This document shows, piece after piece, positions 9,476 through 25,616 of a stretch of DNA of 64,000 nt (positions are counted from its first letter, which is position 1; every line of letters starts with the position of its first letter). The stretch is from Candidatus Nomurabacteria bacterium (GTDB taxonomy: Bacteria > Patescibacteriota > Minisyncoccia > Phycocordibacterales > UBA9973): NCBI GenBank assembly GCA_023267375.1, contig JAHFNJ010000001.1:85878-149877 (forward strand), in the 5' to 3' direction. The translations under genes were made by a program, and so were the position numbers. The notes beneath the pieces are model-generated. The model was not told where the DNA came from. It made no database searches and saw nothing but the letters and a program-made list of their open reading frames with translations.

Positions 9476-11944
9476 TTACTCCAAAATTTTCCGCAGCACA
9501 TCTTCAGGTACTTCTTTCGGTTTCTTTGTTTTGACTGGTGCGGGTGTTTCCTCAGCCTTTTCAGGTTCTGCTTTCAATTCAGCTTGTTTCTTTGCCTGTT
9601 CTGCCGCTTCTTTTTCAATACGTGCCGCATTTTCAGCATACACCCTCCGCTCTTCATCAAGGCGTGCTTTTTCTCTTTTGATTTCTTCTTCCCGCTCTTT
9701 TAATTTTTGAATTGTTTCGGCTTCAACCTTCTTACGCTCCTCTTCTTCTTTTTGGCGACGTAACGCAGACTCTTTCTCATCTCGTTCTTTTTGTGCCTGT
9801 ATTTCCTGCTCACGCTCTTTTTGTACTCGCTCGCGTCGCTCCTTCTCTTCTTTTTCTTCGCGTTCTTTGAGTATGCGCAATTCCGCTTCCTCGCGCTTTT
9901 TTATTTCATCCCCAGTATCTTTGCTTTCAGCAGGGGCTGGTGGCGGAACAGGAACAGATGAAGAAGAAGGTACACTTGTTGGTGCGTTAGCTTTCATCGC
10001 TCGAGCAATAACATCTTTCAATCCAGAAACATGTTCTTCGGATGCTTCTTTTTTGGAAAATTTACTGAGAGCATCATTAACTGGGGCAGGATCTTTTTTG
10101 AGAGCTGCAAGTGACACCGGTTCTGGTTCTTTCTTTGGAATTTCCGCTTGTACTTCCTCTTTCACCTCTTCCTTGGGACGCGTAGAAAACACTACTCCAG
10201 CATTGTTGAGTGCTGCCGTTAATGCATCCTTCAAATTGGTACGATTTGGAAATTCTTTCTTTGGTCGTTCAGCTGCCTGACCACTCATTGGCGGATTCTT
10301 TTTAAATACTTTTGGCGCGCCACTATCAGCAGGAGCTCCGCCTGAATTGAATGTCGGAGCAATGCTTCGCGGGACAAATGGTTTTTTCGGACCAGTTTCT
10401 TGCGCGCCGAATTCAATACCGAGAGCAGAAAGATCTGCCACTGCACGGCGGTCATCACCTCGCCCCTTCATCATGAATCCCTGCGCTGGCTTCAATTCGC
10501 CGTTCTTAATTTTCAACATACAGTCCTTGCAGTAGACAGGTCGGCCAGGAATCGGTTCAAATGGCACCATGGTTGTCTTTCCGCAGTTTGAACATTCTGC
10601 TTTAAACTTTCCTTCCTCAACCAAATCACCTTCCCCGGTAATCGTCATACCACTCCACTTGTTTATTTCTGCCTCGATCACTCCCCGTGGACGTGTATAC
10701 AAATCGCGAGAAGACTGAATAATCTTATCAACCACTTCTTTCGAGTTTTCAACTTTGATCGGCGGTAATGTTGTCGCAGAAAATGGCCGACTCGTTATGC
10801 CATCAACCATCAGTTTCAAATACACATTATAGTTCGGCAGGTTCACAATATCCTGCGGCGTAAATTCCGGCTCAAATTCATTTTCCAAAAATTCTGCGTC
10901 AGCTGCACCGACACGGAAAATAATCATCGTTCCGACGTTACCGAACACGGCGTCGCGGACAATGGTATTTGATTCGGTCACCAACTGCCCGATGTACTGG
11001 TGCGCGAGCGTAAGGTTCAAGCGGTACTTACGAGCTTCCGAAAGAATGTTTGAAAACGAATCTGTTGCAAAGTTCTGGAATTCGTCGACGTACATGTAAA
11101 AGTCCTTACGATCATCTTCTGGGATACGCACACGTTCCATCGCTGCAAGCTGGATTTTCGTAATGAGCATACCTCCCAAAAGTGCAGAGTTATCTTCACC
11201 GATGCGTCCTTTCGATACGTTCACGAGAAAGATTTTTCCCGAGTTCATGATGTCAAAAATATCAATTGTCGATTTTGACTGACCAACCACGTTTCGAATA
11301 AGTGATGTCGACAGGAACTGCCCGACTTTGTTTTGAATCGGAGCGATTGCTTCGTTACGGAACTGATCGCGCCATGCTTCGTATTCATGGATCCAGAATG
11401 CTTTCACCACCGGATCTTTCAAGTTATTCACAATCGTCTGACGAAACTCCTTGTCCACCAGCAAACGCGGAATACCCAAGAGTGTGGAGCCGGGCGTGTC
11501 CAAGAGCGCCAAAATGGCGTTGTTCAAAATATATTCCATTCGGGCACTCCAAGCATTTGCCCAAATCTTAGTGAAGATGCCCATGAGGCCAGACGCCACC
11601 AAGTGCTTGTACTTAGGATCATCAATCTGAATGACGTTGAAACCGATATGGTAGTCCGTATCAGCAGGGTTGAAATACACCACGTCTTTGACGCGATGCG
11701 GCGGAATTGATTCCAAAATGCCTTCAACCAATTCACCGTGCGGGTCGATAACACAGACCCCCTCGCCATTCTGAATGTTCTGGATAATCATGTTGGAAAG
11801 AAGCACCGATTTACCGGTACCTGACTTTCCCAAAACATACATGTGCTGACGGCGGTCTTTTCGCTTTATGCCGAAGAGACGGTCGCTATTTCGGTAATTG
11901 GTTTTGGCAAAATACGTAATATCCTTTTTGGGATCGAGCTGCAT
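9476..11944 (-). CDS. VirD4/TraD-like (T4CP/HerA-superfamily) ATPase with CxxC-x17-CxxC zinc ribbon and charged coiled-coil tail
   Basis: Walker A GKSGTGKS, IDPHGE, Walker B YVDEFQN, EARKY; CSNC-x17-CKDC; no N-terminal TM. Confidence 0.88.
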   Translation of the reverse strand: MQLDPKKDITYFAKTNYRNSDRLFGIKRKDRRQHMYVLGKSGTGKSVLLSNMIIQNIQNGEGVCVIDPHGELVEGILESIPPHRVKDVVYFNPADTDYHIGFNVIQIDDPKYKHLVASGLMGIFTKIWANAWSARMEYILNNAILALLDTPGSTLLGIPRLLVDKEFRQTIVNNLKDPVVKAFWIHEYEAWRDQFRNEAIAPIQNKVGQFLSTSLIRNVVGQSKSTIDIFDIMNSGKIFLVNVSKGRIGEDNSALLGGMLITKIQLAAMERVRIPEDDRKDFYMYVDEFQNFATDSFSNILSEARKYRLNLTLAHQYIGQLVTESNTIVRDAVFGNVGTMIIFRVGAADAEFLENEFEPEFTPQDIVNLPNYNVYLKLMVDGITSRPFSATTLPPIKVENSKEVVDKIIQSSRDLYTRPRGVIEAEINKWSGMTITGEGDLVEEGKFKAECSNCGKTTMVPFEPIPGRPVYCKDCMLKIKNGELKPAQGFMMKGRGDDRRAVADLSALGIEFGAQETGPKKPFVPRSIAPTFNSGGAPADSGAPKVFKKNPPMSGQAAERPKKEFPNRTNLKDALTAALNNAGVVFSTRPKEEVKEEVQAEIPKKEPEPVSLAALKKDPAPVNDALSKFSKKEASEEHVSGLKDVIARAMKANAPTSVPSSSSVPVPPPAPAESKDTGDEIKKREEAELRILKEREEKEEKERRERVQKEREQEIQAQKERDEKESALRRQKEEEERKKVEAETIQKLKEREEEIKREKARLDEERRVYAENAARIEKEAAEQAKKQAELKAEPEKAEETPAPVKTKKPKEVPEDVLRKILE

Positions 11945-11983
11945 ATCGATTGTAGTATAGCATCCCCATCAAACGATTTGAAG

Positions 11984-13675
11984 CTACAATAGCTCCTTTT
12001 GGTAACACTCCTCGCAATAAACTGGACGAGGTTCTTTTTCCGTAAAAAAGGTCTCAAATGTATTGGAGCATTGCCCTGTATGATTGTGAGTTCCAGAACG
12101 GCAATCACATTGACGAGAAACGAGGTCATACCCACCTCGCATAGCTTCACGCTCAGCGTGTCGACAAAAGAAACATTCTGTCGGAATAGGAATAGAAAGT
12201 CTCTTATAGAGGAGTAATTCTTCGGGTAGAATCTTATAATTTCTTTGGCACTTTAGACATGCAAGGATTTCTTTCGTAAAAGAATCACTGACTTCATTGA
12301 TTGAATCTGGAACATCTTCTTGTTTAATTGTTTCCCTACCTCTTGTTTCCTGTATTTCATCTTGCCATTTATACCCTGCATTAAGCGCCTCTTCTTTTGA
12401 AAAAAGAAGCTCTTTCTGTGCTTGGGTTTCATTTACCCCGAATGGAGAATACTTTGTTGGGAAAAATTCCCCCCATTCTCCCCGTGATTTCATGTCAGCG
12501 ACAATTGTTTTATAGAGAGCTAGGTATTCTTCTTTTGAATACTTTTTATTAAGAATAGAGTATTCTCCTTTTTTAATACCCACGCAACCTAATAAATACT
12601 GTGAAGAGTGACAATCAAAACAGTATGCAACGTAATTATTTTTCCACGATTCGAGTGTCGCAATACTATGGTATGAATGATCTGGAGTAATACATTCATA
12701 GGAAAGTTCTGTTTCCCCTCCTACTGTACAGTCATAACATGATTTAAAAGTGACGCCATTATAGACATATTTTGAATCTTCCGAAAAAGATGCGAACATG
12801 GCGTTTTTGGTGTTTTTCGAACGAATCATATCAGTCCCAGTACACGAAACACAATTACGGAGTTCTGCGTACTGGCGAGGCTTATCTTGTAAAAATTCCC
12901 CAAACTCTTGCTTTGCTCTTTTATAACCGATTCGCGTATGTAAATTGTATGAAGCTATTATTTTTTCGTATTCCTCTTTTGAGTACTGTTTATTTTGGAA
13001 ATAGTACTTTTTGTTCCGAAGTCCCGATGACATAAAACAATCCTGACACCCGCGACAGTCGTAACAAAAAGCACAATTGATACAGGCGGTACACCAGTAA
13101 ACACTTTTACAATTTGAAACGCCATTTGCCATCGCTCCATCATAGGTATACTGTGATTCCTCTGCTATACCAAAACAGTCGGATAAATCTTTCCCTGCCG
13201 CAAGAGAGACAGAATTAAAAACGTTTTCGAGCTTCCATGCGATAAAAACCATGGCACAATTCTTTGAAAACGCCACATCGTTCGTATACAGACAATTCGT
13301 ACTGGCTATATCATTGTCATTTATTACGCCAAGTGTCGGCGTTCGTCTATATAAATCGATACATTGTTCAATAAAAGAACGCTTTGGATCATACTCCATA
13401 CCATAATCATATGGATTCCAATTATCACTATGAAAACATTTTGGACACAATAACGAAAATGGTGTGTTCGGTGCATAGATAGAAATAAATTTTTTGCTAC
13501 ATAAACTACACTCTCGAGAATAGAGAGTGCAATCATTTCTCCATGAAAGGCGGCGGATTCTGCGACAATGTGAGCAGAGCGTAGGAGCTGGGACTTCCAT
13601 TTTTTCGTAAAACGAAAAATCATCTGGTTCAATGATAAAATCCTTTTTGCAGTTTTGACAGTTGCGGGTTTCCAT
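11984..13675 (-). CDS. Cys-rich zinc-ribbon/solenoid protein, paralogue 1
   Basis: CQNC...FYEK..VPAPTLCSHCR N-terminus, GEFFP..YSPF, C-terminal VYCEECYQKE. Confidence 0.85.
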   Translation of the reverse strand: METRNCQNCKKDFIIEPDDFSFYEKMEVPAPTLCSHCRRIRRLSWRNDCTLYSRECSLCSKKFISIYAPNTPFSLLCPKCFHSDNWNPYDYGMEYDPKRSFIEQCIDLYRRTPTLGVINDNDIASTNCLYTNDVAFSKNCAMVFIAWKLENVFNSVSLAAGKDLSDCFGIAEESQYTYDGAMANGVSNCKSVYWCTACINCAFCYDCRGCQDCFMSSGLRNKKYYFQNKQYSKEEYEKIIASYNLHTRIGYKRAKQEFGEFLQDKPRQYAELRNCVSCTGTDMIRSKNTKNAMFASFSEDSKYVYNGVTFKSCYDCTVGGETELSYECITPDHSYHSIATLESWKNNYVAYCFDCHSSQYLLGCVGIKKGEYSILNKKYSKEEYLALYKTIVADMKSRGEWGEFFPTKYSPFGVNETQAQKELLFSKEEALNAGYKWQDEIQETRGRETIKQEDVPDSINEVSDSFTKEILACLKCQRNYKILPEELLLYKRLSIPIPTECFFCRHAEREAMRGGYDLVSRQCDCRSGTHNHTGQCSNTFETFFTEKEPRPVYCEECYQKELL

Positions 13676-13679
13676 AAAA

Positions 13680-15380
13680 TCAAACTATCTCTTGCTGATA
13701 ACAGCTTTCACAATACACAATCTCAGGTCTATTTGGCGCGTAACCCGTTTTCATAGCATTGCCACATTTATCGCAATTGCGATCATAGAGCTTCGGTGGG
13801 TTTGTTCGATCAAAACGCTCCTTCTGTCGACAAGTTGGACACCGAGAAGGTAGAGGCATACTGAGTTTACGCATTAACGAAAGTTCATTGGAAACAACAC
13901 GGAACGCCTTATTGCAACTTTCACAGGCAATCACTTCGTTAACAATTTCATCTTTTGTTCCGGTTATTGTATCTGGAATTTCATCTGCTTTTTTTGTGAT
14001 AGCGTACTGATTGGTTTCTGGCTCAAGCCAATCCATTCCATAGGCTGCAACTTCTTCTTGTGTCTTTGGAAAATAACGATGCGCAACAGTTTCATTGTAT
14101 GCAAATGGCGAAAAATCAAGAGGTAGAAATTCACCATACTTCCACTCCCTTCCTAATGCATCTATATATGGATTCTTCACCATATCTTCGCGAATGTGCG
14201 CAGCCAACTTTTCATATTCTTCCTTTGAATATTCTTTGTTTAAAATACAGTATTCTTTGCGCTTCAAACTCACACAACCAAAAACATTTTTAGACGCAAT
14301 TGTATATATACAATATTCATTATAAAGCGCGTTCGGCCAACTTTGATAACAAAATTTAACGTTATTTGCTCCTTCTCCTACGATCATACATTCATAAATA
14401 AGTTCTGCTCCATTTCCCCAACCTGTGTAATCGTAACAATCTCGTGCTGATGGAACACTAATCCAACCAATGTATCGCGAATCTTCTACTCCTGAAACCA
14501 TATATGCATTCTTTGCATTTTTTGATTCATACACATAATCCCCGGTAACATTTACATTTAAACTGTTACCACTGTATGCACGACGCGGATATGTATCCCA
14601 GAATGCTCGTGCTTTTTGTTTTATTCCATTGAGGGCCGAGCGAGAATCTAAGTTAAACTCTTTCAATTTCTCAAAATATCCTTCGCGAGAATACTGTTCA
14701 TTAAATATGCAGTAACTTTTATTGCGCAAGTTTACACAACCAAAACAATTCACACACCCAGCACAACTTCGAGAAAACCAAGTATCAGTACATGAATCAC
14801 ATTCTTCAGAAAAAAATGTGTTGTAACACTTATTACAACCAACATCTTCATAGCACAGCTCACAATCCTTCATGCGATAACAATCAGCTGAATCTTTGAG
14901 AGTCATAAGATACGATGAATAGAAGGTGTTCTCGCAGTAATCTGCCCAAAACGTCATATAGGTATTTTTCTGATAAGCTACAGCATTTGTGTATTCACTG
15001 TTCTCAAGAGTCAAATAAGCGCTTTCAAGTGCTGGCCATGGGACCGTATCGAGAAATTCCTTCATCTGCGCAAGAAATGGACGAGTTTGGTCATATTCTT
15101 TCGCATATTCAGTACCATCCCAGTCATCAGCCCACCAGCACTTCTGACAGTAAACAATTCGCTTGCGTTGCGGAGAAAAAACACTAAGCATGTTTTTTTT
15201 TCCACACTTGGCACAATCCCGTTTGTAAAGACTCCAGACATCGTTAAATGAAAGACGTCTGATTAGGCGGCATTCTGGGCACCATGTTGGTGGAGGAACT
15301 TTTATCTTCTCGTAAAAACCAAAATCATCTGGTTCTATCGTAAAATCTTTTTTACAGTTTTGGCAGTTTTTAGTTTCCAT
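13680..15380 (-). CDS. Cys-rich zinc-ribbon/solenoid protein, paralogue 2
   Basis: Same architecture; start set at METKN by alignment with the other paralogues. Confidence 0.85.
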   Translation of the reverse strand: METKNCQNCKKDFTIEPDDFGFYEKIKVPPPTWCPECRLIRRLSFNDVWSLYKRDCAKCGKKNMLSVFSPQRKRIVYCQKCWWADDWDGTEYAKEYDQTRPFLAQMKEFLDTVPWPALESAYLTLENSEYTNAVAYQKNTYMTFWADYCENTFYSSYLMTLKDSADCYRMKDCELCYEDVGCNKCYNTFFSEECDSCTDTWFSRSCAGCVNCFGCVNLRNKSYCIFNEQYSREGYFEKLKEFNLDSRSALNGIKQKARAFWDTYPRRAYSGNSLNVNVTGDYVYESKNAKNAYMVSGVEDSRYIGWISVPSARDCYDYTGWGNGAELIYECMIVGEGANNVKFCYQSWPNALYNEYCIYTIASKNVFGCVSLKRKEYCILNKEYSKEEYEKLAAHIREDMVKNPYIDALGREWKYGEFLPLDFSPFAYNETVAHRYFPKTQEEVAAYGMDWLEPETNQYAITKKADEIPDTITGTKDEIVNEVIACESCNKAFRVVSNELSLMRKLSMPLPSRCPTCRQKERFDRTNPPKLYDRNCDKCGNAMKTGYAPNRPEIVYCESCYQQEIV

Positions 15381-15382
15381 AA

Positions 15383-17080
15383 TTAAACAATTTCTTTTGT
15401 ATAACAATCCTTACAATAAACGATCGGTTTATTCTTGAGTAATTTAGAGACAGGTGTGGTTTTACCACATTGCACACATTGGCAGGTAGTCATTTTTGAT
15501 TCATCAAGCCACATATCGAGCTTTTCTCCTATGCGACAAAAAGGACACGCTCGTGGAAGCGGAAAGTGTCGGCCACGAAGAAAATCAAGTTCTGCTCTCA
15601 CAATCTTAAACCCTTTTTTACATAAAGTACACTGAATCACCTCTTTTAGAATCGTCTCGTCCACATCTTTGATATTGTCGGGCAAATCTTCGCTTCTTTT
15701 AGTAATTGCATGCTCAGTCGGTGTTTTCTCTTGCCAGTTATAACCATAGCTTACTGCATCACTCTCAGTCATTGGAAATACTCGCTGGGCCACTGTGGCA
15801 TTGTATGTCCAAGGACTTAGTGCTATTGGGAAAAATTCACCATAACGATAGACGTTGCCCCGCTTATCGGTATATGGCATGTCATTCATCTGTTGAATAA
15901 TTTTTCCACGAAGTGCATAAAATTCTTCTTTAGAGTACGGCTTATTAAAAATCGTGTACTCTCCTTTTTTTACACTCACGCACCCGAAAAATCCTCTCCC
16001 ACCAATAGTAAGAAATGAGTACTCCATGTCACTCCCCCCGATTGCACTTAATACACTCCATTTTATATTTTGAGCATTTTCACCTATAGTGAGAGAATCA
16101 TAAGAAAGTTCAGCACCTCCCCACCCAGTAATATCATATGAATCCTTCGTGTCATGTAAAAAATGAAGATACCTACCATCTTGGCACGTAACCAACTCAA
16201 AAGAATCTTTGCAATTTTTTGATTCAAAGATCATGTTCCCTGTGCAGCCAACAGACATGTCATCATAGTAGGCTTTTTGTGGAAACGAATCCCAATGTTT
16301 TTCCGTTTCCTTTTTTATTCCTTGATACTGTGCATACGACCCAAAATCGATCTGATCCAATCTATTAGAATATTCTTCTTTGGAAAGAGGTTCATTAAAA
16401 TAGTGGTATTTTTTATTTCTCAAATTCGCCGACCCAAAACAATTTTGGCAATTAGCGCAATTGCGCAAGAAATGGCAATTCATTGATTCAGTCACTTGAT
16501 TCCGCAACCCGACTCCACCGCTCACTTTAAAGATATGCATTGAGTCATAGCATCGATCGGAGCTCATAACGAGTGACGAATCAAGCATGGTGTTACTATG
16601 CATAATATAAACACCATAGGATGCATCCTCAGTCCAGTCGGTATTAAAAACCAAATAACAATTCTTAAGCGAACCAGTGTAGTTTGTATAGGGAGATGTC
16701 GCAATCACATTCTGCTCAATCGCAAGTGCAAGATGCGGGACTTCGTGCATAAGCTCATCAAACTGCTCAAAAAATGACCGAGAAAAATCGTAGTCGCGAG
16801 CATACGAAAGCGGGTCCCAACCATCGCCCCACCAACACGTCGGGCAATATACTGTATAGTTTGCTTCGAGTGGATACATAGAAATAGTATCTTTCTTACA
16901 TAAATCACAGGGACGTTTGTAGAGCGTTACTAAATTAAAAAAAGCGAGCCGACGCTGCAATCGACACTCTGCACAAAAGGTCGGCGGAGGTACTTTCATT
17001 TTTTCGTAAAAAGAAAAATCATCAGGTTCGATAGTAAACTGATTCTTACAATTCTGACAATTTTTTGTTTCTGAATTCAT
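15383..17080 (-). CDS. Cys-rich zinc-ribbon/solenoid protein, paralogue 3
   Basis: Same architecture; C-terminal CVQC-x17-CKDC. Confidence 0.85.
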   Translation of the reverse strand: MNSETKNCQNCKNQFTIEPDDFSFYEKMKVPPPTFCAECRLQRRLAFFNLVTLYKRPCDLCKKDTISMYPLEANYTVYCPTCWWGDGWDPLSYARDYDFSRSFFEQFDELMHEVPHLALAIEQNVIATSPYTNYTGSLKNCYLVFNTDWTEDASYGVYIMHSNTMLDSSLVMSSDRCYDSMHIFKVSGGVGLRNQVTESMNCHFLRNCANCQNCFGSANLRNKKYHYFNEPLSKEEYSNRLDQIDFGSYAQYQGIKKETEKHWDSFPQKAYYDDMSVGCTGNMIFESKNCKDSFELVTCQDGRYLHFLHDTKDSYDITGWGGAELSYDSLTIGENAQNIKWSVLSAIGGSDMEYSFLTIGGRGFFGCVSVKKGEYTIFNKPYSKEEFYALRGKIIQQMNDMPYTDKRGNVYRYGEFFPIALSPWTYNATVAQRVFPMTESDAVSYGYNWQEKTPTEHAITKRSEDLPDNIKDVDETILKEVIQCTLCKKGFKIVRAELDFLRGRHFPLPRACPFCRIGEKLDMWLDESKMTTCQCVQCGKTTPVSKLLKNKPIVYCKDCYTKEIV

Positions 17081-17141
17081 TTTATATAAAAAGAAACCAT
17101 GAGCGAGATGTGGCTCGCTTTAGCATTTTAAAATCGAATAC

Positions 17142-17447
17142 TCACCGCATCGTCTCAACCATCCATTCTTTATAGCTGTGATTCAATCGACGAATATCAA
17201 CTCCAGCTACAAGCGGTACACTATATGTATGATTTTGGGAAATAATGGTCTCAACTTCCTGCAATTTCGATTCGAGTGTCGTAATCAAAAGAATCGCTTG
17301 CAAATGATCTTTCATTACTCCTTCATACATATATATCGATTCGACAGGCCAAAAATCAACACAGGCCCCCACTTTTCGCGAGATGATGAGTGATCCCAAT
17401 TTTTTCGCTTCGGCTGTGGTTTCGCATGTTGTATAGACAAATACCAT
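17142..17447 (-). CDS. cutA: CutA divalent-cation tolerance family protein
   Basis: 101 aa; VYTT, GACV, VESIY.YEG and HTYSVP motifs. Confidence 0.85.
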   Translation of the reverse strand: MVFVYTTCETTAEAKKLGSLIISRKVGACVDFWPVESIYMYEGVMKDHLQAILLITTLESKLQEVETIISQNHTYSVPLVAGVDIRRLNHSYKEWMVETMR

Positions 17448-17580
17448 AGAAATAGAGCCTTTTGGGCTTAATTAGCTTTCGACCTTTACGCTTTCATTAT
17501 ACACCTCAAAAAGCTAATCAATTTGATTGACGAAAGAAGCAAATACTGTATAATTTTTCAAAAATCAAAACTATACTGAA

Positions 17581-18024
17581 ATGAAGAAACTACTGCTCAT
17601 TCTGATGGTTGTCCTGACACAAACAGTGTACGCACAACCCAAAACTACACCTTCCCTTCCTGATGAAGATTACCGTCGCCCACCAATGTCACTCAAAGAA
17701 AAACATGTGTTGGCTATCAAAAACTACATTCCTGACCCGTGCCAGGAATCGTATGTAGTAAACAATAGTACAATTTATCGTTATCGTGATGTAAATAAAA
17801 ATGTGATCTTGTTGTTTCTTCCCAAAGATACAACCGTCGGCTTTGCGGTAGCCACCCACGACACGCTCGGCAATCACATGTTTATTCCATTTACAATCGA
17901 TAAAAAAATGTTCTTCTGGTATCTCGAAGAAAACGATAAAATAACATCGGAAGAAAACCTTGATGCACTGATGGAAGAAATTATTGTTATCTTATGGAAC
18001 AAGGACAAAAAGGCAAGGATGTAG
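17581..18024 (+). CDS. Orphan secreted protein
   Basis: Signal peptide MKKLLLILMVVLTQTVYA; own TTGACG...TATAAT promoter and downstream terminator. Confidence 0.7.
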   Translation: MKKLLLILMVVLTQTVYAQPKTTPSLPDEDYRRPPMSLKEKHVLAIKNYIPDPCQESYVVNNSTIYRYRDVNKNVILLFLPKDTTVGFAVATHDTLGNHMFIPFTIDKKMFFWYLEENDKITSEENLDALMEEIIVILWNKDKKARM

Positions 18025-18034
18025 GAATGTAATC

Positions 18035-18071
18035 TTTAAAGGGATGTTCGCTTTGCGAACATCCCTTTAAA
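18035..18071. terminator. Bidirectional intrinsic terminator
   Basis: Perfect 17-bp stem TTTAAAGGGATGTTCGC / GCGAACATCCCTTTAAA. Confidence 0.8.
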
Positions 18072-18097
18072 TTTTAATATTAGCCACTAGACATTTC

Positions 18098-19837
18098 TCA
18101 TATAACTTCCTTTTGGTAGCAACTTTCACAATAAACTTTTTCCGGTCGCTCTGGCGCATAGCTTGTTTCAAATTCATTTGAACACTTACCGGAATGCTCA
18201 TGACTTCCCTCTTCGCACATACATGAACGATGCCAGAGTTTTAGCGGATTACGCAAACGGAGGCGTTTATAGTGTCGGCAATTGGGGCAGTGTCGAGGGG
18301 CAGCAATTGAATTCTTTTTTAAAAACAACAACTCTTCACTGGTTATTCGATATGCCCCCGTACACTGTGTAAGTTCACTTCCCCCTCCAAGACAAGCGAT
18401 GGTCTCATTTAAAATAGAGTTCTCCAGCTCATTTATATGATCTGGCAATTCACTCGCTTGTTTTGTAATTTTATAATCTTTATGTTCTGGTTTTCGAAAT
18501 AAGTATCCTTGAGCCTGTATTTCTTCTTCTTTTTTTGGAAAATATTCTTGGGCAATTGTTTCATTGTAGGCAAATGGCGAAATTTCACTCGGAAAAAATT
18601 CTCCGTATCGATACACCTGCCCCTTTGCATCAAGATACGGTACTGCTCGCATATGCTCTATAATTTTTGGTACCAATGTTTCGTATTCTTCCTTAGTATA
18701 TTGTTTATTCAAAATACAATACTCTTTTTTTCTCAAACCAATACATCCAAAAAGATTTTTAGAGTTGTAACACATGTAAGTATAACGAGTATTAAAAGAA
18801 CTATGTGTCAAAACGGCAAAATACTGATTTGCAGCTTTAATACCCGAATCAATTCCTTCATAGAGAAGCGTCGCCCCTCCACCACAACCATAACCGTCAT
18901 ATCCTTCTTTCAGGTCGATGACATGGGAAATATATTTTGAATCTTCAACTTCTCCGAAAACATCAAAACAGTATTTAACATTTTTTGAATTTCCGATATT
19001 GTCACCAGTTGCATTAACCGATTTGCCGATATTGCCATACTTATGTGGAAACTTTAGTACAAAATCGGAGTATTTTTCTTCAAAATTGGAGAGCGCTTTG
19101 TAACTTCCAAAATCTAAGGATTTTTTTTGATCCATGTATTCTTCTTTAGTGTACTGAGTATTGTAGATGCAATATTGTTTATTGCGAAGATTAATACAGC
19201 CGATACAATCTCGAAGATTTTTAGAGTGTTGCAGAAAAAAAGAATTGATTGATTCATCTGTGTTATATGAATAATGGGTCTGATAAAGGCCAGTACAAAT
19301 AACATCATTGGAGCTTTGCTCAGATTTTTCAACCGTGTCTATATCCATGCAATCTTTAAGTTCAACAGCACCACGAGAGTATGCCACTCTTTCATTGTTA
19401 AACGAGGCAAATGTTAAATAGCAATCTTTGCAATCAGCATTATGGTTGCCATAAGGAGAATTGACGACATTTGTATTTCCTAAATTTGCCAGAGGTACGA
19501 GAGAAAGCAACTTTTGAAATTGCTCAAAAAATGGTCGGGAAAAATCATATTCTTGACCAAACTCTATTGGATCCCATTCATCGCTCCACCAAATATCTCG
19601 ATCGTAGACTACTACCGGCGCCTCGGGGTGGAACATGGTTATCACCTGTTTGCCAGTTTTCGCACAGGTGCGTTTAAAGAGAGACCGTTCATTGCGCCAT
19701 GTTAGGCGACGAATCATTCTACATTCCGGACAAAATGTCGGTGGCGGCACTTTAATTTTCGTATAAAAATCAAAGTCTTCAGGTTCTATTGTGAAGTCTT
19801 GTTTGCAGTTTTGGCAGGTTTTTGTTTGAGAGTTCAT
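18098..19837 (-). CDS. Cys-rich zinc-ribbon/solenoid protein, paralogue 4
   Basis: Same architecture; GEFFPSEISPFAYNE, VYCESCYQKE. Confidence 0.85.
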   Translation of the reverse strand: MNSQTKTCQNCKQDFTIEPEDFDFYTKIKVPPPTFCPECRMIRRLTWRNERSLFKRTCAKTGKQVITMFHPEAPVVVYDRDIWWSDEWDPIEFGQEYDFSRPFFEQFQKLLSLVPLANLGNTNVVNSPYGNHNADCKDCYLTFASFNNERVAYSRGAVELKDCMDIDTVEKSEQSSNDVICTGLYQTHYSYNTDESINSFFLQHSKNLRDCIGCINLRNKQYCIYNTQYTKEEYMDQKKSLDFGSYKALSNFEEKYSDFVLKFPHKYGNIGKSVNATGDNIGNSKNVKYCFDVFGEVEDSKYISHVIDLKEGYDGYGCGGGATLLYEGIDSGIKAANQYFAVLTHSSFNTRYTYMCYNSKNLFGCIGLRKKEYCILNKQYTKEEYETLVPKIIEHMRAVPYLDAKGQVYRYGEFFPSEISPFAYNETIAQEYFPKKEEEIQAQGYLFRKPEHKDYKITKQASELPDHINELENSILNETIACLGGGSELTQCTGAYRITSEELLFLKKNSIAAPRHCPNCRHYKRLRLRNPLKLWHRSCMCEEGSHEHSGKCSNEFETSYAPERPEKVYCESCYQKEVI

Positions 19838-19840
19838 ACA

Positions 19841-21490
19841 CTAAGAAATTTCTCGTTGGTAGCAATCAATACAGGCGATCTTCTGATAGCCCCATGATTT
19901 TGGATAGTATGCCACCACCTCCTTCGCACAGTACGTGCAGCTATACTGTTCCCCTTTAGTTTGACTCATCGGCAACAATCGCTCTTTCGTTCGCACATCA
20001 AAGTGTACTCGCGGTAACGCGATATTTTTCCGCCTTAAAAATTGCAATTCTGTCTCTGCAATATTGTATCTCCAACCAGTAACCGGACAGATAAGCGCCT
20101 GTTTTGGAAGTGATGGATCAGCATTGGTGACTAAATCAGGAAGTTCTGACGTAGGAATACCTTCTACTTTTTTACCCTCACCCTCTTCCCAATACCCTCC
20201 GCGTTCAGCTATATACTCTTTTGTTACCTCAGGGAAATAGACAGCTGCAGTTGAAAGATTGTACGGACACAATCCGAGTGAGTATGGCGGAAACTTTCCA
20301 TACTCTCCTCGTACTTTCATATCTGCAATTATTTTTTCTTTCAAAGCTTCATATTCTTCCTTTGTATATTCTTTATTCAAAATACTGTATTTTTTCTTTC
20401 GTAGTCCGACACATCCAAAACAGTAATCCACTTCCAAGCATTGGTCACAGTATTCACTATAACGAGCACCATCACACCAAATGGAATATTTAAGCTGATA
20501 CCCATTGGTACAACAGCTATTATTTCCAGAATTTTCTAGCGTCCAGCAACCAGTCAGATCGATTGCGTCTTTTGTCTTTAACCCACGAAGACAGTTGGTA
20601 CAATTTTCTGATTCTTCCCAGCAAAAAACATTTGTACAGTTATTACAATTAGACATGTACGTACCCGTAGAATTTGTAGTTTTAATATTAAAGTTCTCTC
20701 GATGAACTGCATTTGATTTCAGAAGTTCAGCATATTGTTTTTTATATTTCTCCAATTGAACATGGGAACCCAAGTTAATTCCCTTCATTTTTTCTTCATA
20801 CTCTTCTTTAGTGTATTGTATATTTTCAATGCAGTATGACTTTCCTCTCAGATTCCAGCTCATAAAACAGTGCTGGCAGTTACGACAATCAAATAAAAAT
20901 GCACTTTCTATGCAATCTCTACAGTTCCTTGAAAAAAGAAGGCTATAGGAATTGAAACAGTACCCACAGTCATAGCATTGATCGAGCGTAAATACATGCG
21001 AAATGTCCGCTGAGTCTTTGCAATCCATGGCACGATAGCCATAGAGAAGATTCTCTGATCTTGCTATCGAACGAGAAAGGTAGCAATTTTTGGAATCCCA
21101 GGCATCATCAGCCCATTCACAGCCGACACTATTAGTCCCCATTTGATGGGGACGTGGCACTTTCTCTTGCAGTTCTTTGAGTTGCTCAAAAAACGGTCGA
21201 CTGGAATCATAGTCTTGTCCGTAGCTCATTGGATCCCAGGCATCACTCCACCATTCTTTGGCAGTATAGATAGGATAACGTGGATTTTCTGGCAATACTG
21301 TAATAAATTTTTCCCCAGAAAGACTAGAGGTACCTGCACGGAATTTACCAAACGGCCAGAAGGCAAAATGGTGTTTCCAACGACATGGAACACAGATATC
21401 AGGAACTTCAATCCCGACTTTTTCGTACATGCCACTCTCTCTGTCAGTTATATCAAATCCTACCTTACAATAGGCGCAGGTCTTTTGCAT
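19841..21490 (-). CDS. Cys-rich zinc-ribbon/solenoid protein, paralogue 5 (most diverged)
   Basis: WWSDAWDP..YGQDYD.SRPFFEQ, CFGCVGLRKKKY, ACIDCYQRE. Confidence 0.85.
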   Translation of the reverse strand: MQKTCAYCKVGFDITDRESGMYEKVGIEVPDICVPCRWKHHFAFWPFGKFRAGTSSLSGEKFITVLPENPRYPIYTAKEWWSDAWDPMSYGQDYDSSRPFFEQLKELQEKVPRPHQMGTNSVGCEWADDAWDSKNCYLSRSIARSENLLYGYRAMDCKDSADISHVFTLDQCYDCGYCFNSYSLLFSRNCRDCIESAFLFDCRNCQHCFMSWNLRGKSYCIENIQYTKEEYEEKMKGINLGSHVQLEKYKKQYAELLKSNAVHRENFNIKTTNSTGTYMSNCNNCTNVFCWEESENCTNCLRGLKTKDAIDLTGCWTLENSGNNSCCTNGYQLKYSIWCDGARYSEYCDQCLEVDYCFGCVGLRKKKYSILNKEYTKEEYEALKEKIIADMKVRGEYGKFPPYSLGLCPYNLSTAAVYFPEVTKEYIAERGGYWEEGEGKKVEGIPTSELPDLVTNADPSLPKQALICPVTGWRYNIAETELQFLRRKNIALPRVHFDVRTKERLLPMSQTKGEQYSCTYCAKEVVAYYPKSWGYQKIACIDCYQREIS

Positions 21491-21542
21491 AGCGAAATTG
21501 TAGCAGTTTTGAGCTAGGGAACAAAGGTCATATAATGCATTT

Positions 21543-22346
21543 ATGCTTACCTTCTATAAATACCACGGGGCTGGAAATGACTTCGTTGTCATAGACAACC
21601 GAGATCTTTCATTTGATAGGGCCGACAGCAAGCTAGTCCAACAGATCTGCCACCGTCGATTTGGTATTGGCGCAGATGGAATGCTCCTCCTTCAAAATCA
21701 CCCTGAATATGATTTTGAAATGATTTATATCAACTCTGATGGCTCCTACGGCGCAATGTGCGGCAACGGAGGACGATGTATCGTTTCTTTTGCTGAGAAG
21801 CTGGGAATTATCAAAAATCCAAAAGAAATAAAATTCCTGGCAGCCGACGGCCTACACGAAGCGGAACTTTTAGAAAATAACATGGTACGCCTAAAGATGG
21901 CGGATGTTTCAGCTATTAGTGAACGTAACGGTCTTCCCTTCCTCTATTCAGGAACAACCCCGCACCACATTCAGCAAGTCGTAAACCTAGAAACATTTCC
22001 TGTGGTCGCCGAAGCACAGAAGGTACGTGAGAAAAATGGTGACGCTCATGGCGTAAACGTAAACTATGTCGAGAAAAAGGGAGATATTTTTCATGTCCGA
22101 ACCTATGAGCGCGGAGTGGAAGATGAAACACTTGCCTGTGGCACGGGCGCAACATCAGTAGCTATTTATCTCGCAAACCAAAATATGCTGGGAGGTAATA
22201 CTGCGACTATTAAGATGCCTGGCGGAACACTCGAGGTCAGTTTTCAAAAAGAAAATGACGGCACCTATAAAAATATATGGCTTCTCGGACCAGCATCATT
22301 TGTTCTCAAAGGAGAATGGAACAATGAAAATACGTATGTAGTATAA
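21543..22346 (+). CDS. dapF: Diaminopimelate epimerase
   Basis: KYHGAGNDF, GIGADG, MCGNG, RTYERGVEDETLACGTG; both catalytic Cys present. Confidence 0.93.
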   Translation: MLTFYKYHGAGNDFVVIDNRDLSFDRADSKLVQQICHRRFGIGADGMLLLQNHPEYDFEMIYINSDGSYGAMCGNGGRCIVSFAEKLGIIKNPKEIKFLAADGLHEAELLENNMVRLKMADVSAISERNGLPFLYSGTTPHHIQQVVNLETFPVVAEAQKVREKNGDAHGVNVNYVEKKGDIFHVRTYERGVEDETLACGTGATSVAIYLANQNMLGGNTATIKMPGGTLEVSFQKENDGTYKNIWLLGPASFVLKGEWNNENTYVV

Positions 22347-22347
22347 G

Positions 22348-23808
22348 TTAGATTAACGGCTCAGCGTTTTCTTCTACTTTCACTTCTGCTTTTACTTCTC
22401 CGCGTCCTTTACCAGTAATCGCGGCCTTTTCTTGGGCGCTGCGGATAATGGTGGATTCTTCCTCTTCAATAAGTTTTCTCGCCATGTCCATCGGAATGGA
22501 ATATTTTTTACGAGAAGCTTCAACAATGCGCTCACGGTACGATGGATGCGGTGGCGGTAATACTTTCAATGTTTCAGCAGAAAACGGATCGTACGATTCC
22601 CCATCGATTGTCATCTTGATAAAAAATTCGCCGATACCCAAGTTGATCATATCTTTTACATCGAATACTGGCGCAAATTCAGGCTTCAATTTTACGGCAT
22701 CGTCACCACCCACGCGGAAGGAAATGATCGAACCGACGTTACCGAGCACCGCCGCCTGCACCTTTGGAAGCAATTGACCGACGTATTGATGTGCCACGGT
22801 CAGATTCAATCCATACTTACGCGCCTCAGAGAGAATGTTTTCAAATGTATCAGTCACGATGTTTTGAAACTCGTCTACGTAAATATAAAAATCATCACGC
22901 TTGTCATGAGCAATTTTGGCGCGCGCCATTCCAGCTTGTTTGATTTTCGTGACAAACATCGAACCAAAGAAGCTTGAATTTTCTTCACCGATCTTTCCTT
23001 TTGAAAGGTTGATGAAAATGAGTTTCTTCGAATTCATAAGCTTTTCAATATCAATTTTGTTTTCTTTCTGTCCGAAGATGTTGCGAAGCATTGGGTCAGA
23101 GAGAAATTGTCCAAGTTTGTTCACAAGCGGAATGATCGCGTCCGTATCAAATTTTTCAGACCAGTCAGCAAATTCGATTGCCCAAAAGCGCTTCACCATA
23201 TCGTCTTCGATATATTCCACCACCTTTTGACGGTAGTTACGATCAGTCAACATCGAAATCATGCCGCGCATGGTAGCGTGCGGATAGTCGAGGAGTGCGA
23301 GCACAGTAAAACGAAATACGTGCTCAAGACGCGGCGTCCAGTTCGCACCGAATTGCTTTTCCATCACTTCAATGAGACCTTGGGTCAATTGGTGTTTGAA
23401 TGTTGGATCAACGTTTGCAAGCGGGTTGAATGACACTGGATATTCATAGTCAGATGGATCAATGATACAGACGTCATCAATACGCTCCTCGGGAACGAAC
23501 GCAAGAATATCTTCAATCGCTTCACCGTGCGGATCGACAAGGCAGAGTCCATGACCATACGCGATGTCTTGGCGAATCATGAGTTCCAATAGTTTTGACT
23601 TACCAACACCAGACTTACCGATGATATAGAGGTGACGACGGCGATCAACACGCTTTATGCCGAAGATAAATTTCTTTTCTTCGAGCGCTGCAACGTAGTT
23701 TGTACGTCCAATAAACGAAATTTCCTCAGGTCGAACCTGCCCATGAATCGGTAGTTCTGGTGGCGGAGACGCGTATTTGATTATTTGGATTTTATTGGCT
23801 CGAGCCAT
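22348..23808 (-). CDS. Second VirD4/TraD-like ATPase (core domain only)
   Basis: GKSGVGKS, VDPHGE, YVDEFQN, EARKYGL; clearly paralogous to 9476-11944. Confidence 0.88.
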   Translation of the reverse strand: MARANKIQIIKYASPPPELPIHGQVRPEEISFIGRTNYVAALEEKKFIFGIKRVDRRRHLYIIGKSGVGKSKLLELMIRQDIAYGHGLCLVDPHGEAIEDILAFVPEERIDDVCIIDPSDYEYPVSFNPLANVDPTFKHQLTQGLIEVMEKQFGANWTPRLEHVFRFTVLALLDYPHATMRGMISMLTDRNYRQKVVEYIEDDMVKRFWAIEFADWSEKFDTDAIIPLVNKLGQFLSDPMLRNIFGQKENKIDIEKLMNSKKLIFINLSKGKIGEENSSFFGSMFVTKIKQAGMARAKIAHDKRDDFYIYVDEFQNIVTDTFENILSEARKYGLNLTVAHQYVGQLLPKVQAAVLGNVGSIISFRVGGDDAVKLKPEFAPVFDVKDMINLGIGEFFIKMTIDGESYDPFSAETLKVLPPPHPSYRERIVEASRKKYSIPMDMARKLIEEEESTIIRSAQEKAAITGKGRGEVKAEVKVEENAEPLI

Positions 23809-25616
23809 TATTCGTCATTATACTCCATTTTTTCCTTTTTCTCACTGCCGTTTCCAGCCAAGAAACCACCGGCCTGCATGTCCCAGAGCTTTTTATACAG
23901 ACTCTCCTTTTTCTTGAGCAATTTTGCGTGCGACCCTTCTTCGATGATTACCCCTTGCTCAAGGACGACAATCCGATCCATTTTTTGAATGGTACTCAAC
24001 CGGTGCGCAATAACGAGCGTTGTCCTCCCTTTCATAAGCTCCACAAATGCTTCCTGAATATACGACTCACTGACACTATCAAGTGAACTAGTCGCTTCAT
24101 CAAGAATAAGGATTGGTGAATTTTTTAACATCGCTCGAGCAATAGCCACGCGCTGACGTTCTCCGCCAGAGAGCTTTACCCCACGCTCACCAACCAACGT
24201 ATCGTACCCATGCGGAAGCTGTAAAATAAATTCATGTGCATGCGCTTTCTTGGCAACCGTTTCAATTTCTTCATTCGTTGCGCCAGGGTTGCCGTAGGCA
24301 ATATTTTCACGGATCGTTCGATGGAACAAAATTGCTTCCTGTGGCACATAGGAAATAGCCCCACGTAGATCATCTTGGGTCACATTCCGTATATCTTGAC
24401 CATCAATGGTAATAGAACCGGCAGTCACATCGGCAAAGCGAAGCAAGAGTTTTGTGATTGTCGACTTACCTGCACCAGAATGACCGACGAGACCGATCCG
24501 TTCACCAGGTTTGATCTCAAGATTGAAATTGTTAAATACTGACACGCCATCCTTGTAAATGAACGAAATATTCTTGAATTTTATGCACCCACCATTCATT
24601 GTAATTGGCTCAGGGTGCACGGGGTCAGCAATATCAATTGGCTGATCGAAAATATCAGTAATCTCTTTTACGTCGGTCACCGATTTTACAAAACGTGTCA
24701 TTGCTTTAGATAAATTCCAAAGACGGTCAAATAGATTGAGCATATAGGTTTCAACCAACACAAATACGCCAGTTGATACAGCCCCCTCAACCCACCCATG
24801 CGCCATTTTATACAAGATAAAAATATGGATACCGACCATCAGTAAACTTTGCACACCATCTGAAACATTCCCTAAATACCATGACTTATTTCTCGCAATA
24901 AACTCACTACTTGTAATTGTCTTATAGTGGATAATTTCTCTATCACGAGCAGAAAATATTTTTATACTAAAAATATTTGAGAGCGCATCAGCTAAACTTC
25001 CCCCTACTTTTGAATCTGCGGCAGCTTCAAGCAAGTCAAATTTTATTTTGTAACGAATAAAGAAAAGTGTGATGACAACGTATATGATAGTCCACACAAC
25101 AAAGCCAACAGCAATACTGGGAGCTTTTATAAACAAAATGATAAAAACACCAATTACCGATAGAAATGTGGTGTAAAAATCCCACGTAAAAACATCATGC
25201 ATTGCTTCAAAACCTCGAACAAAACGTTTTGCTTTTGAAACCAAGCTCCCAGAAAACTGATTAGTAAAAAAACTGTACGAGTGTTTTGTTAATTTTTCAA
25301 AAGCATAATTGTGCAATTCACGTATTGTATTACTTTGAAAATACGTAGTAGTAAAACCACCAATTCTTCCAAGGACAAAACCTGCAACAAGACTCATCGA
25401 CATCAAAAAAATAAGGTATGTCAATTCTTGTGTGTAGACTATTCGATCTACTCCGGCACCTGAAAGCAGGTCAATTATTTTTTGTAACAGGAGCGGTGGA
25501 AGAATACCCAACGATAATACCCTTAAAAAATACACGACATAAAGTGACCAGAAAGAAACTGGGTATTTTCTAATGTGGGGCCAAATATGATTGAGGATTT
25601 TTTTAAATGAAAACAT
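23808..25616 (-). CDS. ABC exporter, fused permease/ATPase
   Basis: N-terminal TM domain, GHSGAGKS, LSGGERQR, ILDEATS, IAHRLST; TAATG overlap with the ATPase gene. Confidence 0.92.
   Translation of the reverse strand: MFSFKKILNHIWPHIRKYPVSFWSLYVVYFLRVLSLGILPPLLLQKIIDLLSGAGVDRIVYTQELTYLIFLMSMSLVAGFVLGRIGGFTTTYFQSNTIRELHNYAFEKLTKHSYSFFTNQFSGSLVSKAKRFVRGFEAMHDVFTWDFYTTFLSVIGVFIILFIKAPSIAVGFVVWTIIYVVITLFFIRYKIKFDLLEAAADSKVGGSLADALSNIFSIKIFSARDREIIHYKTITSSEFIARNKSWYLGNVSDGVQSLLMVGIHIFILYKMAHGWVEGAVSTGVFVLVETYMLNLFDRLWNLSKAMTRFVKSVTDVKEITDIFDQPIDIADPVHPEPITMNGGCIKFKNISFIYKDGVSVFNNFNLEIKPGERIGLVGHSGAGKSTITKLLLRFADVTAGSITIDGQDIRNVTQDDLRGAISYVPQEAILFHRTIRENIAYGNPGATNEEIETVAKKAHAHEFILQLPHGYDTLVGERGVKLSGGERQRVAIARAMLKNSPILILDEATSSLDSVSESYIQEAFVELMKGRTTLVIAHRLSTIQKMDRIVVLEQGVIIEEGSHAKLLKKKESLYKKLWDMQAGGFLAGNGSEKKEKMEYNDE

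Follow-up and report, generated by a model that had tools for sequence, protein, structure and literature searches.

Coupling proteins of type IV secretion systems (T4SS), among them TrwB of R388, VirD4, TraD, Cag-beta and DotL, are ATPases of the FtsK/HerA superfamily with an established role in substrate recruitment. In the Dot/Icm system of Legionella the coupling ATPase DotL is joined by the cytoplasmic adaptors IcmS, IcmW and LvgA, which choose subsets of the substrates (PMC7251119). In Patescibacteria, PMC12102498 counts 5,713 VirD4-like homologues in 2,918 genomes, 148 of them near virB4, and leaves exaptation as an option; in one cultivated strain the t4cp homologue was non-essential for epibiotic growth and other T4SS genes were essential. 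The locus described here lies at positions 9476..25616 of a stretch of 64,000 nucleotides (the window) of contig JAHFNJ010000001.1, assembly GCA_023267375.1, from Candidatus Nomurabacteria, and holds two soluble ATPases of this kind together with five cysteine-rich (Cys-rich) paralogues, P-A to P-E. ATPase 2 (22348-23808, minus strand, 486 residues) and the Cys-rich family co-occur in other genomes and are gained or lost together. As a rule their genes are neighbours on the same strand, the P-A orthogroup (P-A at 19841-21490, minus strand, 549 residues, 35 Cys) coming directly downstream of ATPase 2. The genes for CutA and ATPase 1 (9476-11944, minus strand, 822 residues) often complete the cluster, and ATPase 1 occurs with or without the family. 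The favoured explanation, to which a probability of roughly one half is assigned, is that ATPase 2 acts as a soluble ring motor of the coupling type, dedicated to the Cys-rich family, and that the paralogues provide its specificity as cytoplasmic adaptors, subunits or clients. The module is real, conserved and built on a known kind of ATPase, and neither the Cys-rich family nor its link to the ATPases was found described in the literature covered, subscription journals being outside its scope.

Linkage was counted in three samples, namely the 30 nearest relatives, 80 loci around relatives of P-A and 100 genomes drawn evenly from the class. The preliminary description of the window had made its proposal depend on enriched linkage between the family and these ATPases in other genomes, and the gene-neighbourhood counts in all three samples gave linkage well beyond chance. 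ATPase 1-type and ATPase 3-type genes, the latter named after a third ATPase elsewhere in the same genome, are present in nearly all 30 relatives. An ATPase 2-type gene (79-85% identity) was found in eight, all eight of which own the family, and the family was found in two of the 22 relatives without ATPase 2 (G009, 77% complete, and G017). Three relatives (G012, G015 and G018) carry ATPase 2, two paralogues and ATPase 1 on the same strand within about 7 kb, and in G003 the sole paralogue comes after ATPase 2.

The 80 loci come from other species, were retrieved with the paralogue alignment as best matches to P-A and were mapped by tblastn; their records include the labels Nomura-, Staskawicz-, Lipton-, Harrison- and Ryanbacteria and Paceibacterota. 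Within the fetched flank ATPase 1 and ATPase 2 were found in 32 loci each, 20 loci having both and 44 at least one of them, and 32 of the 43 loci that reach 18 kb or more hold ATPase 1 or 2. All 64 ATPase matches share the strand of the paralogue. The ATPase 3-type gene, equally common in genomes and used as a control, was met in one of the 80 loci, on the opposite strand. P-A is the next mapped gene after ATPase 2 in 16 of 26 loci, with a gap of at most 135 nucleotides in 13.

The class sample gave the same association: ATPase 2-type genes in 15 genomes, the family in 15, both in 12, one only in 3 + 3 and neither in 82 (n = 100; odds ratio 109, Fisher p 1.8e-10, a value which overstates the case because of the kinship between genomes). 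Eight GTDB families are represented among the 12 genomes that have both, and in 10 of these genomes a paralogue is found no more than 8 kb from ATPase 2. Where a class genome has a single paralogue (n = 5), this adjoins ATPase 2 in four and lies 7.7 kb off in one.

ATPases 1 to 3 belong to the same kind as the orphan t4cp homologues of Patescibacteria, and the passages of PMC12102498 on these homologues name no partners, draw no division into ATPases 1, 2 and 3 and do not mention the Cys-rich family. As in known type IV coupling proteins (T4CPs), the P-loop nucleotide-binding domain matches Pfam models above their cut-offs: both ATPases of the window are hit by TrwB_AAD_bind, T4SS-DNA_transf and DUF87 (ATPase 2: PF02534 28.5 bits, cut-off 20.1, and PF10412 23.7 bits, cut-off 20.5; ATPase 1: PF10412 42.3 bits, same cut-off), and the DUF87 matches on the ATPases score 27.2-33.6 bits (cut-off 23.2). 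A Walker A motif GKSGxGKS and a DEFQN motif are visible in the sequences. The AlphaFold2 (AF2) model of ATPase 2 (predicted local distance difference test, pLDDT, 64, with a confident core) has TrwB (1e9s) as its best Foldseek match (E 6.8e-9, template modelling score 0.41-0.47) and also matches Cag-beta, DotL and HerA-NurA, all of TrwB, Cag-beta, DotL and HerA falling at E 7e-9 to 5e-8. In this model an all-helical insertion of about 125 residues (135-259), which would resemble that of the T4CPs, is predicted to separate the Walker A strand of the nucleotide-binding domain from the Walker B strand.

Several features set the window ATPases apart from T4CPs. They have no N-terminal transmembrane domain, a Kyte-Doolittle scan finding no transmembrane segment in ATPases 1, 2 and 3; they do not lie beside virB4; and no relaxase was seen among their recurrent neighbours, no search directed at relaxases having been made. 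Two or three chromosomal paralogues per genome are kept, and the ATPases of the loci retain 68-84% identity between lineages. Scores stay far under the NCBIfam equivalog cut-offs (NF045973, CD1115-type VirD4, 53.5 against 250 bits; TIGR03743, 47.7 against 366), and the sequence profile of ATPase 2 finds no PDB chain at E <= 0.01. The ATPases are thus called TrwB-fold coupling-type ATPases rather than T4CPs, because they have no membrane anchor, no linkage to a T4SS or relaxase and sub-cut-off equivalog scores. Both ATPases 1 and 2 also match phrog_5156, a family for which the function is not known, over the C-terminal half of its 824-position profile.

ATPases 1 and 2 are 45% identical over 432 residues. 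In a quick maximum-likelihood tree all 32 ATPase 2 sequences form a single clade with 99% support in the Shimodaira-Hasegawa-like approximate likelihood ratio test, and the branching of this clade parallels the ATPase 1 subtree, in keeping with an origin of ATPase 2 from ATPase 1 by an old duplication and vertical descent thereafter. Judged from these sequences, the orphan coupling ATPases of Patescibacteria split into three old lineages, the near-universal ATPase 1 (93 of the 100 class genomes at E <= 1e-140), the longer ATPase 3 and the accessory ATPase 2.

The Cys-rich proteins encoded in the window (P-A; P-B, 18098-19837, 579 residues, 26 Cys; P-C, 15383-17080, 565 residues, 27 Cys; P-D, 13680-15380, 566 residues; P-E, 11984-13675, 563 residues, 38 Cys; all minus-strand genes) share 29-32% identity with P-A along the full length. 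They contain 26-38 Cys (4.5-6.7% of residues) and have isoelectric points of 5.5-6.1, with as many as four treble-clef-like CxxC...CxxC ribbons per protein. Each of them ends in the same ribbon, and P-A has lost the second and third. The Cys that are invariant between paralogues are mainly the CxxC pairs of the ribbons, most of those in the solenoid being variable. The 566 residues of P-D are counted from the ATG at 15380, which gives the length of the database copy P0001; the listed alternative start, a TTG at 15407, overlaps P-C and yields a reading of 575 residues with 36 Cys.

P-D is predicted to consist of four zinc ribbons and two beta-solenoid modules. Its AF2 model, built from a 40-sequence alignment (pLDDT 81, predicted template modelling score 0.82), runs from two ribbons through a beta-rich region at about 120-225, a helical hairpin, a second beta-rich region at about 265-380 with a long helix and an alpha/beta region to two further ribbons, the whole forming an internal two-fold repeat. 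Foldseek found no PDB match to this model at E <= 0.001, and VIA-align returned only beta-helix proteins, over 120-225 and 265-405, with a best Z of 5.6 (root mean square deviation 3.5 over 88 residues). With nothing other than beta-helix rows at Z <= 5.6, the solenoid fold is plausible and a function is not deducible from it. The central modules align with left-handed beta-helix proteins (the budworm antifreeze protein 1m8n, DapD, LpxD and GlmU; Z 4.5-5.6), scores that are under the level of kinship, and no motif or family of acyltransferases was matched. Against PDB sequences the paralogue profile hit nothing but LIM domains (E 0.003-0.2, over the last 50 residues). In Pfam the first ribbon of P-D resembles PF13451, zf_Tbcl, below its cut-off (18.9 against 24 bits), and neither the solenoid nor the 400-480 region has a match.

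The family is large: the candidates that were scored include no fewer than 7,978 related clusters at 90% identity, and at 50% identity there are 5,911 representatives (E <= 1e-3). Nearly all members are unnamed or "hypothetical", one cluster being named "CxxC-x17-CxxC domain-containing protein", and the ESM Atlas returned only unnamed clusters, from Minisyncoccota and Peregrinibacteria. A search for longer or fused forms found no fusion to another domain and one triple tandem of 1,727 residues (P0121). In two relatives tandem paralogues open as frames of about 1,140-1,160 residues (G001:C5:16523-19951 and G008:C3:30642-37489), which may be fusions or effects of the assembly or of stop codons.

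In a FastTree analysis of 224 paralogue sequences, each of the eight paralogues of this genome falls in a clade of its own (support 0.88-1.0, 4-65 loci), the clade of P-A having 71 leaves from 65 loci, that of P-B 27 from 23, that of P-C 7 from 7 and that of P-E 16 from 16. Orthologues are 46-77% identical along their full length, across candidate phyla. Each paralogue thus forms an old orthogroup that spans lineages and does not stem from a recent or fast-diversifying expansion, so that the "diversified set" of the preliminary description does not fit, and the paralogues are likely not fast-diversifying exported substrates.

The Dot/Icm arrangement, a coupling ATPase with cytoplasmic adaptors that select subsets of substrates, is the favoured working model for the module. 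The Legionella complex, in contrast, sits in the membrane and belongs to a defined secretion system (PMC7251119), and the paralogues are likened to its adaptors by role only. ATPase 2 would assemble a ring motor like other ATPases of the FtsK/HerA superfamily, and the paralogues would dock on it, possibly at the conserved peptides of its two termini. Alignment A3 shows such peptides at about residues 8-20, 443-464 and 483-486, outside the folded core, and invariant residues lie in the N-terminal 20 and C-terminal 45 residues, where the AF2 model is disordered; these conserved termini are candidate docking peptides. The distinct old paralogue lineages would bring distinct specificities for the nucleic acid or protein macromolecule on which the motor acts, and ATPase 1, as a general motor of the class, may act beside ATPase 2.

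A number of observations weigh against a dedicated motor. Three class genomes have an ATPase 2-type gene and no family match at E <= 1e-40 (G039, 72% identity; G082, 63%; G035, 53%), and two genomes that are both 99% complete (G047 and G017) have the family without ATPase 2. No ATPase was found in 36 of the 80 loci, including 11 of the 43 long ones, and these ATPase-less loci include L016-L019, the second- to fifth-closest listed relatives of P-A (71-75% identity). The linkage rate applies to the P-A orthogroup, because the loci are the best matches to P-A, which is the paralogue nearest ATPase 2. In the genome itself, an assembly of 848 kb in 14 contigs with eight family members and three ATPases of this kind, five paralogues sit between two of the three ATPases and the other three are unlinked, one after purL on contig C8 and a tandem pair after ruvX on C10. 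The AF2 model of ATPase 2 is of moderate confidence, and HerA (4.2e-8) scores nearly as well on it as TrwB. The order grpE-then-P-A, near dnaK and dnaJ, recurs in about 29 of the 80 loci and fits a role in proteostasis equally well. Finally, the grounds for taking the paralogues as adaptors rather than cargo are indirect, consisting of deep conservation, C-terminal structural zinc sites, housekeeping neighbours and single-copy adjacency, which together would favour the adaptor.

If the paralogues were instead substrates, ATPase 2 would be a second, dedicated coupling protein that recognises the conserved C-terminal ribbon region and passes them to the near-universal T4SS for delivery to a host. 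A channel is available for this, VirB4-like genes occurring in 96 and ATPase 1-type genes in 93 of the 100 class genomes; substrate recruitment is what coupling proteins do, the same terminal ribbon is found on all paralogues, copy number in the family ranges from 1 to 19 per genome, and a surface protein with an LTD domain follows ATPase 1 in 6 of the 80 loci. With VirB4 in all but four of the 100 genomes, its distribution cannot separate the readings. The window was said to contain no VirB gene, which is right: the genome's own PrgI-family protein, a 222-residue open reading frame (ORF) and a VirB4-like ATPase (P-loop_TraG, 87 bits) lie on another contig, at C1:30323-33415 (L095:6324-9416), and are followed by secreted proteins. 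Old orthogroups with orthologues 46-77% identical over the full length are, however, unusual for effectors, the neighbours are ribosomal and heat-shock genes, and the module never lies beside virB4 here. Proteins with 26-38 Cys and structural zinc sites at the extreme C-terminus would also make a poor signal for export in an unfolded state. In one cultivated strain the t4cp homologue was moreover reported as dispensable for epibiotic growth where other T4SS genes were essential (PMC12102498). Export of the paralogues as cargo appears rather unlikely. A fuller version, with ATPase 2 and the family as the cargo-selecting front end of the T4SS and the paralogues as ancient zinc-finger proteins that enter host cells and bind conserved host nucleic acids or machinery, is more doubtful again.

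The preliminary description had proposed the ribbon shared by ATPase 1 and the paralogues as a docking tag. The exact CxxC-x17-CxxC ribbon of ATPase 1 and the C-terminal ribbon strings of the paralogues are indeed present in the translations, the former as a treble-clef ribbon at residues 447-478 (10511..10606, minus strand) that matches PF23477 with 51.1 bits (cut-off 27) and TIGR04272 with 55.6 bits (cut-off 36). Past it ATPase 1 has a tail of 342 residues rich in K, E, A and P. P-D reaches 37.3 bits in PF23477 (cut-off 27) and 30.2 bits in TIGR04272, below the cut-off of 36, P-C and P-E remain below the PF23477 cut-off with 19.5 and 17.7 bits, and P-A and P-B do not match it. All 11 PF23477 matches in the genome lie within ATPase 1 or the paralogue family. 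Among the complete ORFs of the loci, 23 of 24 for ATPase 1 and none of 31 for ATPase 2 have the exact motif. In the 30 relatives PF23477 is found on the ATPase 1 ORF of all eight ATPase 2 genomes and also in G011, which has no family member. For the class sample presence of the ribbon was inferred from alignment extent (query residues 1-480, end at 473 or beyond), and the ATPase 1 alignment extends to the ribbon in 12 of 14 family-bearing against 37 of 79 family-less genomes (odds ratio 6.8). Since the ATPase that tracks the family is ribbonless and the ribbon of ATPase 1, common without the family, is only moderately enriched with it, the tag that would dock paralogues on ATPase 1 is not supported by these counts, and the shared ribbon more probably serves as a module for binding a common ligand.

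A CxxC-x17-CxxC domain binds zinc, as determined by inductively coupled plasma mass spectrometry on two purified proteins of Methanosarcina mazei (PMC12704099). These small zinc proteins have the same TIGR04272/PF23477 ribbon domain as stand-alone units, whereas here it ends a multi-domain protein of 550-580 residues and, in ATPase 1, follows an ATPase core. The strongest PF23477 ribbons among the relatives (57-64 bits) are on separate ORFs of 160-227 residues (G001:C8, G003:C1, G004:C2, G013:C1, G014:C28, G015:C3, G019:C1, G021:C2, G023:C4, G025:C1 and G029:C2), and the genome of the window has no match to this ORF type.

The recurrent core of the cluster is ATPase 2, P-A, optional further paralogues, optional cutA and ATPase 1, and maps of the 80 loci with their neighbours clustered show flanks that vary between three settings. 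In the first, secDF, a protein with sigma region 4 and HARE-HTH domains, a membrane protein here called TM465 and a small membrane protein precede ATPase 2 (or 1), the paralogues, cutA and the other ATPase. In the second, a ribosomal-protein and rpoA block leads to grpE, P-A, more paralogues, sometimes cutA, a divergent winged helix-turn-helix (wHTH) gene, dnaK, ATPase 1, ATPase 2 and dnaJ. The third, to which the window belongs, has a divergent NRAMP-like gene, ATPase 2, P-A, cutA and a small cytidylyltransferase-like gene and runs onward, sometimes by way of another paralogue, to ATPase 1 and an LTD protein.

The second setting would fit a role in proteostasis or metal handling, with the paralogues as zinc- or redox-sensitive holdases or as metal stores that are remodelled by the ATPases. 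The grpE-P-A loci (L026-L036, L039, L042, L044-L046, L048-L055, L060, L082, L083, L085 and L090), many of them labelled Nomurabacteria, have P-A right after the grpE that closes an rpsM-rpoA-rplQ-rplM-rpsI block and a divergent wHTH gene before dnaK, and many run on through dnaK, ATPase 1 and ATPase 2 to dnaJ. Together with this grpE-dnaK-dnaJ context, such a role would account for the enrichment of cutA in the cluster and for the NRAMP-like gene found divergently upstream of ATPase 2 in eight loci, and a Cys content of 4.5-6.7% suits it. Against it, most Cys of the solenoid vary between paralogues, the CxxC pairs of the ribbons being the main invariant ones; no chaperone or metallochaperone family was matched; and the genome's own grpE/wHTH/dnaK region (C12:6-13 kb) holds neither a paralogue nor an ATPase. 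TrwB-like ATPases are not known to be unfoldases. Such a role is considered improbable.

Another possibility is a nucleic-acid machine, for example for DNA uptake, repair or partition. The paralogues would then be loaders that bind DNA or RNA by their ribbons, for the ring ATPases to pump or remodel. Treble-clef ribbons frequently bind nucleic acids, the FtsK, HerA and TrwB members matched by the ATPase 2 model translocate DNA, and in 11 loci the ATPases follow the sigma region 4/HARE-HTH protein and TM465. The paralogues are, however, mildly acidic, no nucleic-acid-binding family scores above its cut-off on them, and no nuclease, recombinase or relaxase was seen in the conserved cluster, with the limit on the relaxase search given above. 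A machine acting on nucleic acids in this way is held to be quite unlikely. Among the closest known systems are also the HerA complexes (HerA-NurA, SIR2-HerA and DUF4297-HerA), which likewise pair a ring ATPase of the superfamily with a neighbouring partner gene and match the ATPase 2 model at structural E values of 4e-8 to 5e-6. They differ in that the paralogues have no nuclease or NADase domain, the predicted helical insertion of ATPase 2 would be T4CP-like and the conservation resembles that of housekeeping genes. The N-terminus of the ATPase 2 model is disordered, HerA ranks just after TrwB, and no NurA-like neighbour was seen in the loci.

The membrane protein TM465 lies directly before an ATPase in 5 of the 80 loci and one gene further upstream in six more, the small membrane protein standing between TM465 and the ATPase in those six. 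It is present in all 31 genomes of the order, as a single copy in 30 and as two adjacent pieces in one frame in G023. The genome's own copy is 68 kb away from the window's module, and TM465 adjoins ATPase 1 in none of the 30 relatives. A split coupling protein with TM465 as its separate anchor was considered and does not explain the window, TM465 being universal yet unlinked in this order. In the genome the homologue (437 residues) stands at C12:25244-29155 (L096) in a row with a sigma-70 region 4 and HARE-HTH protein, a membrane protein of 165 residues and YceG/MltG.

It may also be that there is no coupling at all and that the arrangement is synteny inherited in slowly rearranging small genomes, or else an anti-phage defence island. 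Related genomes are not independent, the parallel ATPase trees indicate vertical descent, the module is patchy among close relatives (11 of 31 genomes), and PADLOC gives weak matches on the ATPases to mad8 (44.7 bits) and HerA (27-34 bits). PADLOC matched no defence system as such, and the paralogues, cutA and the orphan ORF described below match none of its models. Against both, the core stays intact in three architectures with differing flanks, presence and absence are joint over eight families, and single paralogues adjoin ATPase 2. An ATPase identity of 68-84% would also be far above what is usual for defence genes. Inherited synteny or defence is considered very improbable.

CutA (17142-17447, minus strand, 101 residues; CutA1, PF03091, 80.5 bits) recurs in the cluster without being obligatory: in 18 of the 80 loci its gene stands among the cluster genes and shares their strand. 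In the class sample cutA was found in 4 of 15 family-bearing genomes, in-cluster in three of these, against 4 of 85 without the family. Listed in the preliminary description as interruptions of the run were cutA, an orphan gene and dapF; this holds for dapF (21543-22346, plus strand; Pfam DAP_epimerase) and for the orphan ORF (17581-18024, plus strand, 147 residues, no Pfam match), homologues of which were found in 0/80 loci each, and does not hold for cutA. The same description listed the ABC exporter (MsbA-like, 23808-25616, minus strand; Pfam ABC_tran/ABC_membrane) in the run of genes, and with a homologue near the cluster in just 9 of the 80 loci it is a local neighbour and no conserved member.

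The layout itself was read correctly. The list of ORFs places the exporter, ATPase 2, five paralogues of 549-579 residues and ATPase 1 on the minus strand, the stop of the exporter gene overlaps the ATPase 2 start as TAATG, and the gaps are 3 nucleotides between P-A and P-B, 2 between P-C and P-D and 4 between P-D and P-E. The paralogues, like the ATPases, have no transmembrane segment in the Kyte-Doolittle scan, and they have no signal peptide either. A scan for promoters and terminators in this sequence found as many sites as in shuffled sequence and is for that reason uninformative.

The orphan ORF opens with a segment resembling a signal peptide. On its 3' side, at 18035-18071, a perfect 17-bp inverted repeat is flanked on either side by T runs and would serve as a bidirectional terminator. 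The LTD protein of the window (7988-9448, minus strand; PF00932 94.4 bits, with a PKD domain) starts 27 nucleotides after ATPase 1 and has a signal peptide and a hydrophobic C-terminal segment; with 6 of 80 loci it is an occasional neighbour.

Outside the module, ATPase 3 (910 residues, C2:1324-4056, L012:1324-4056) adjoins ndk. Its N-terminal extension of about 470 residues has no transmembrane segment and is weakly similar to the soluble part of TM465 (E 1e-8 to 1e-10). A 742-residue ORF beside a recA-like ORF on C5 is probably FtsK, judging by a weak AAA_10 match and its neighbour.

Thousands of coupling-type ATPase genes in Patescibacteria lie away from secretion systems and have no assigned function (PMC12102498). 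ATPase 2 now gains a specific candidate partner, an unnamed family of at least 5,900 clusters that has no solved relative, and the question of the orphan coupling proteins becomes testable on a pair of two proteins. If the partners turned out to be adaptors or cargo of the T4SS, the pair would be relevant to the action of these obligate symbionts on their hosts.

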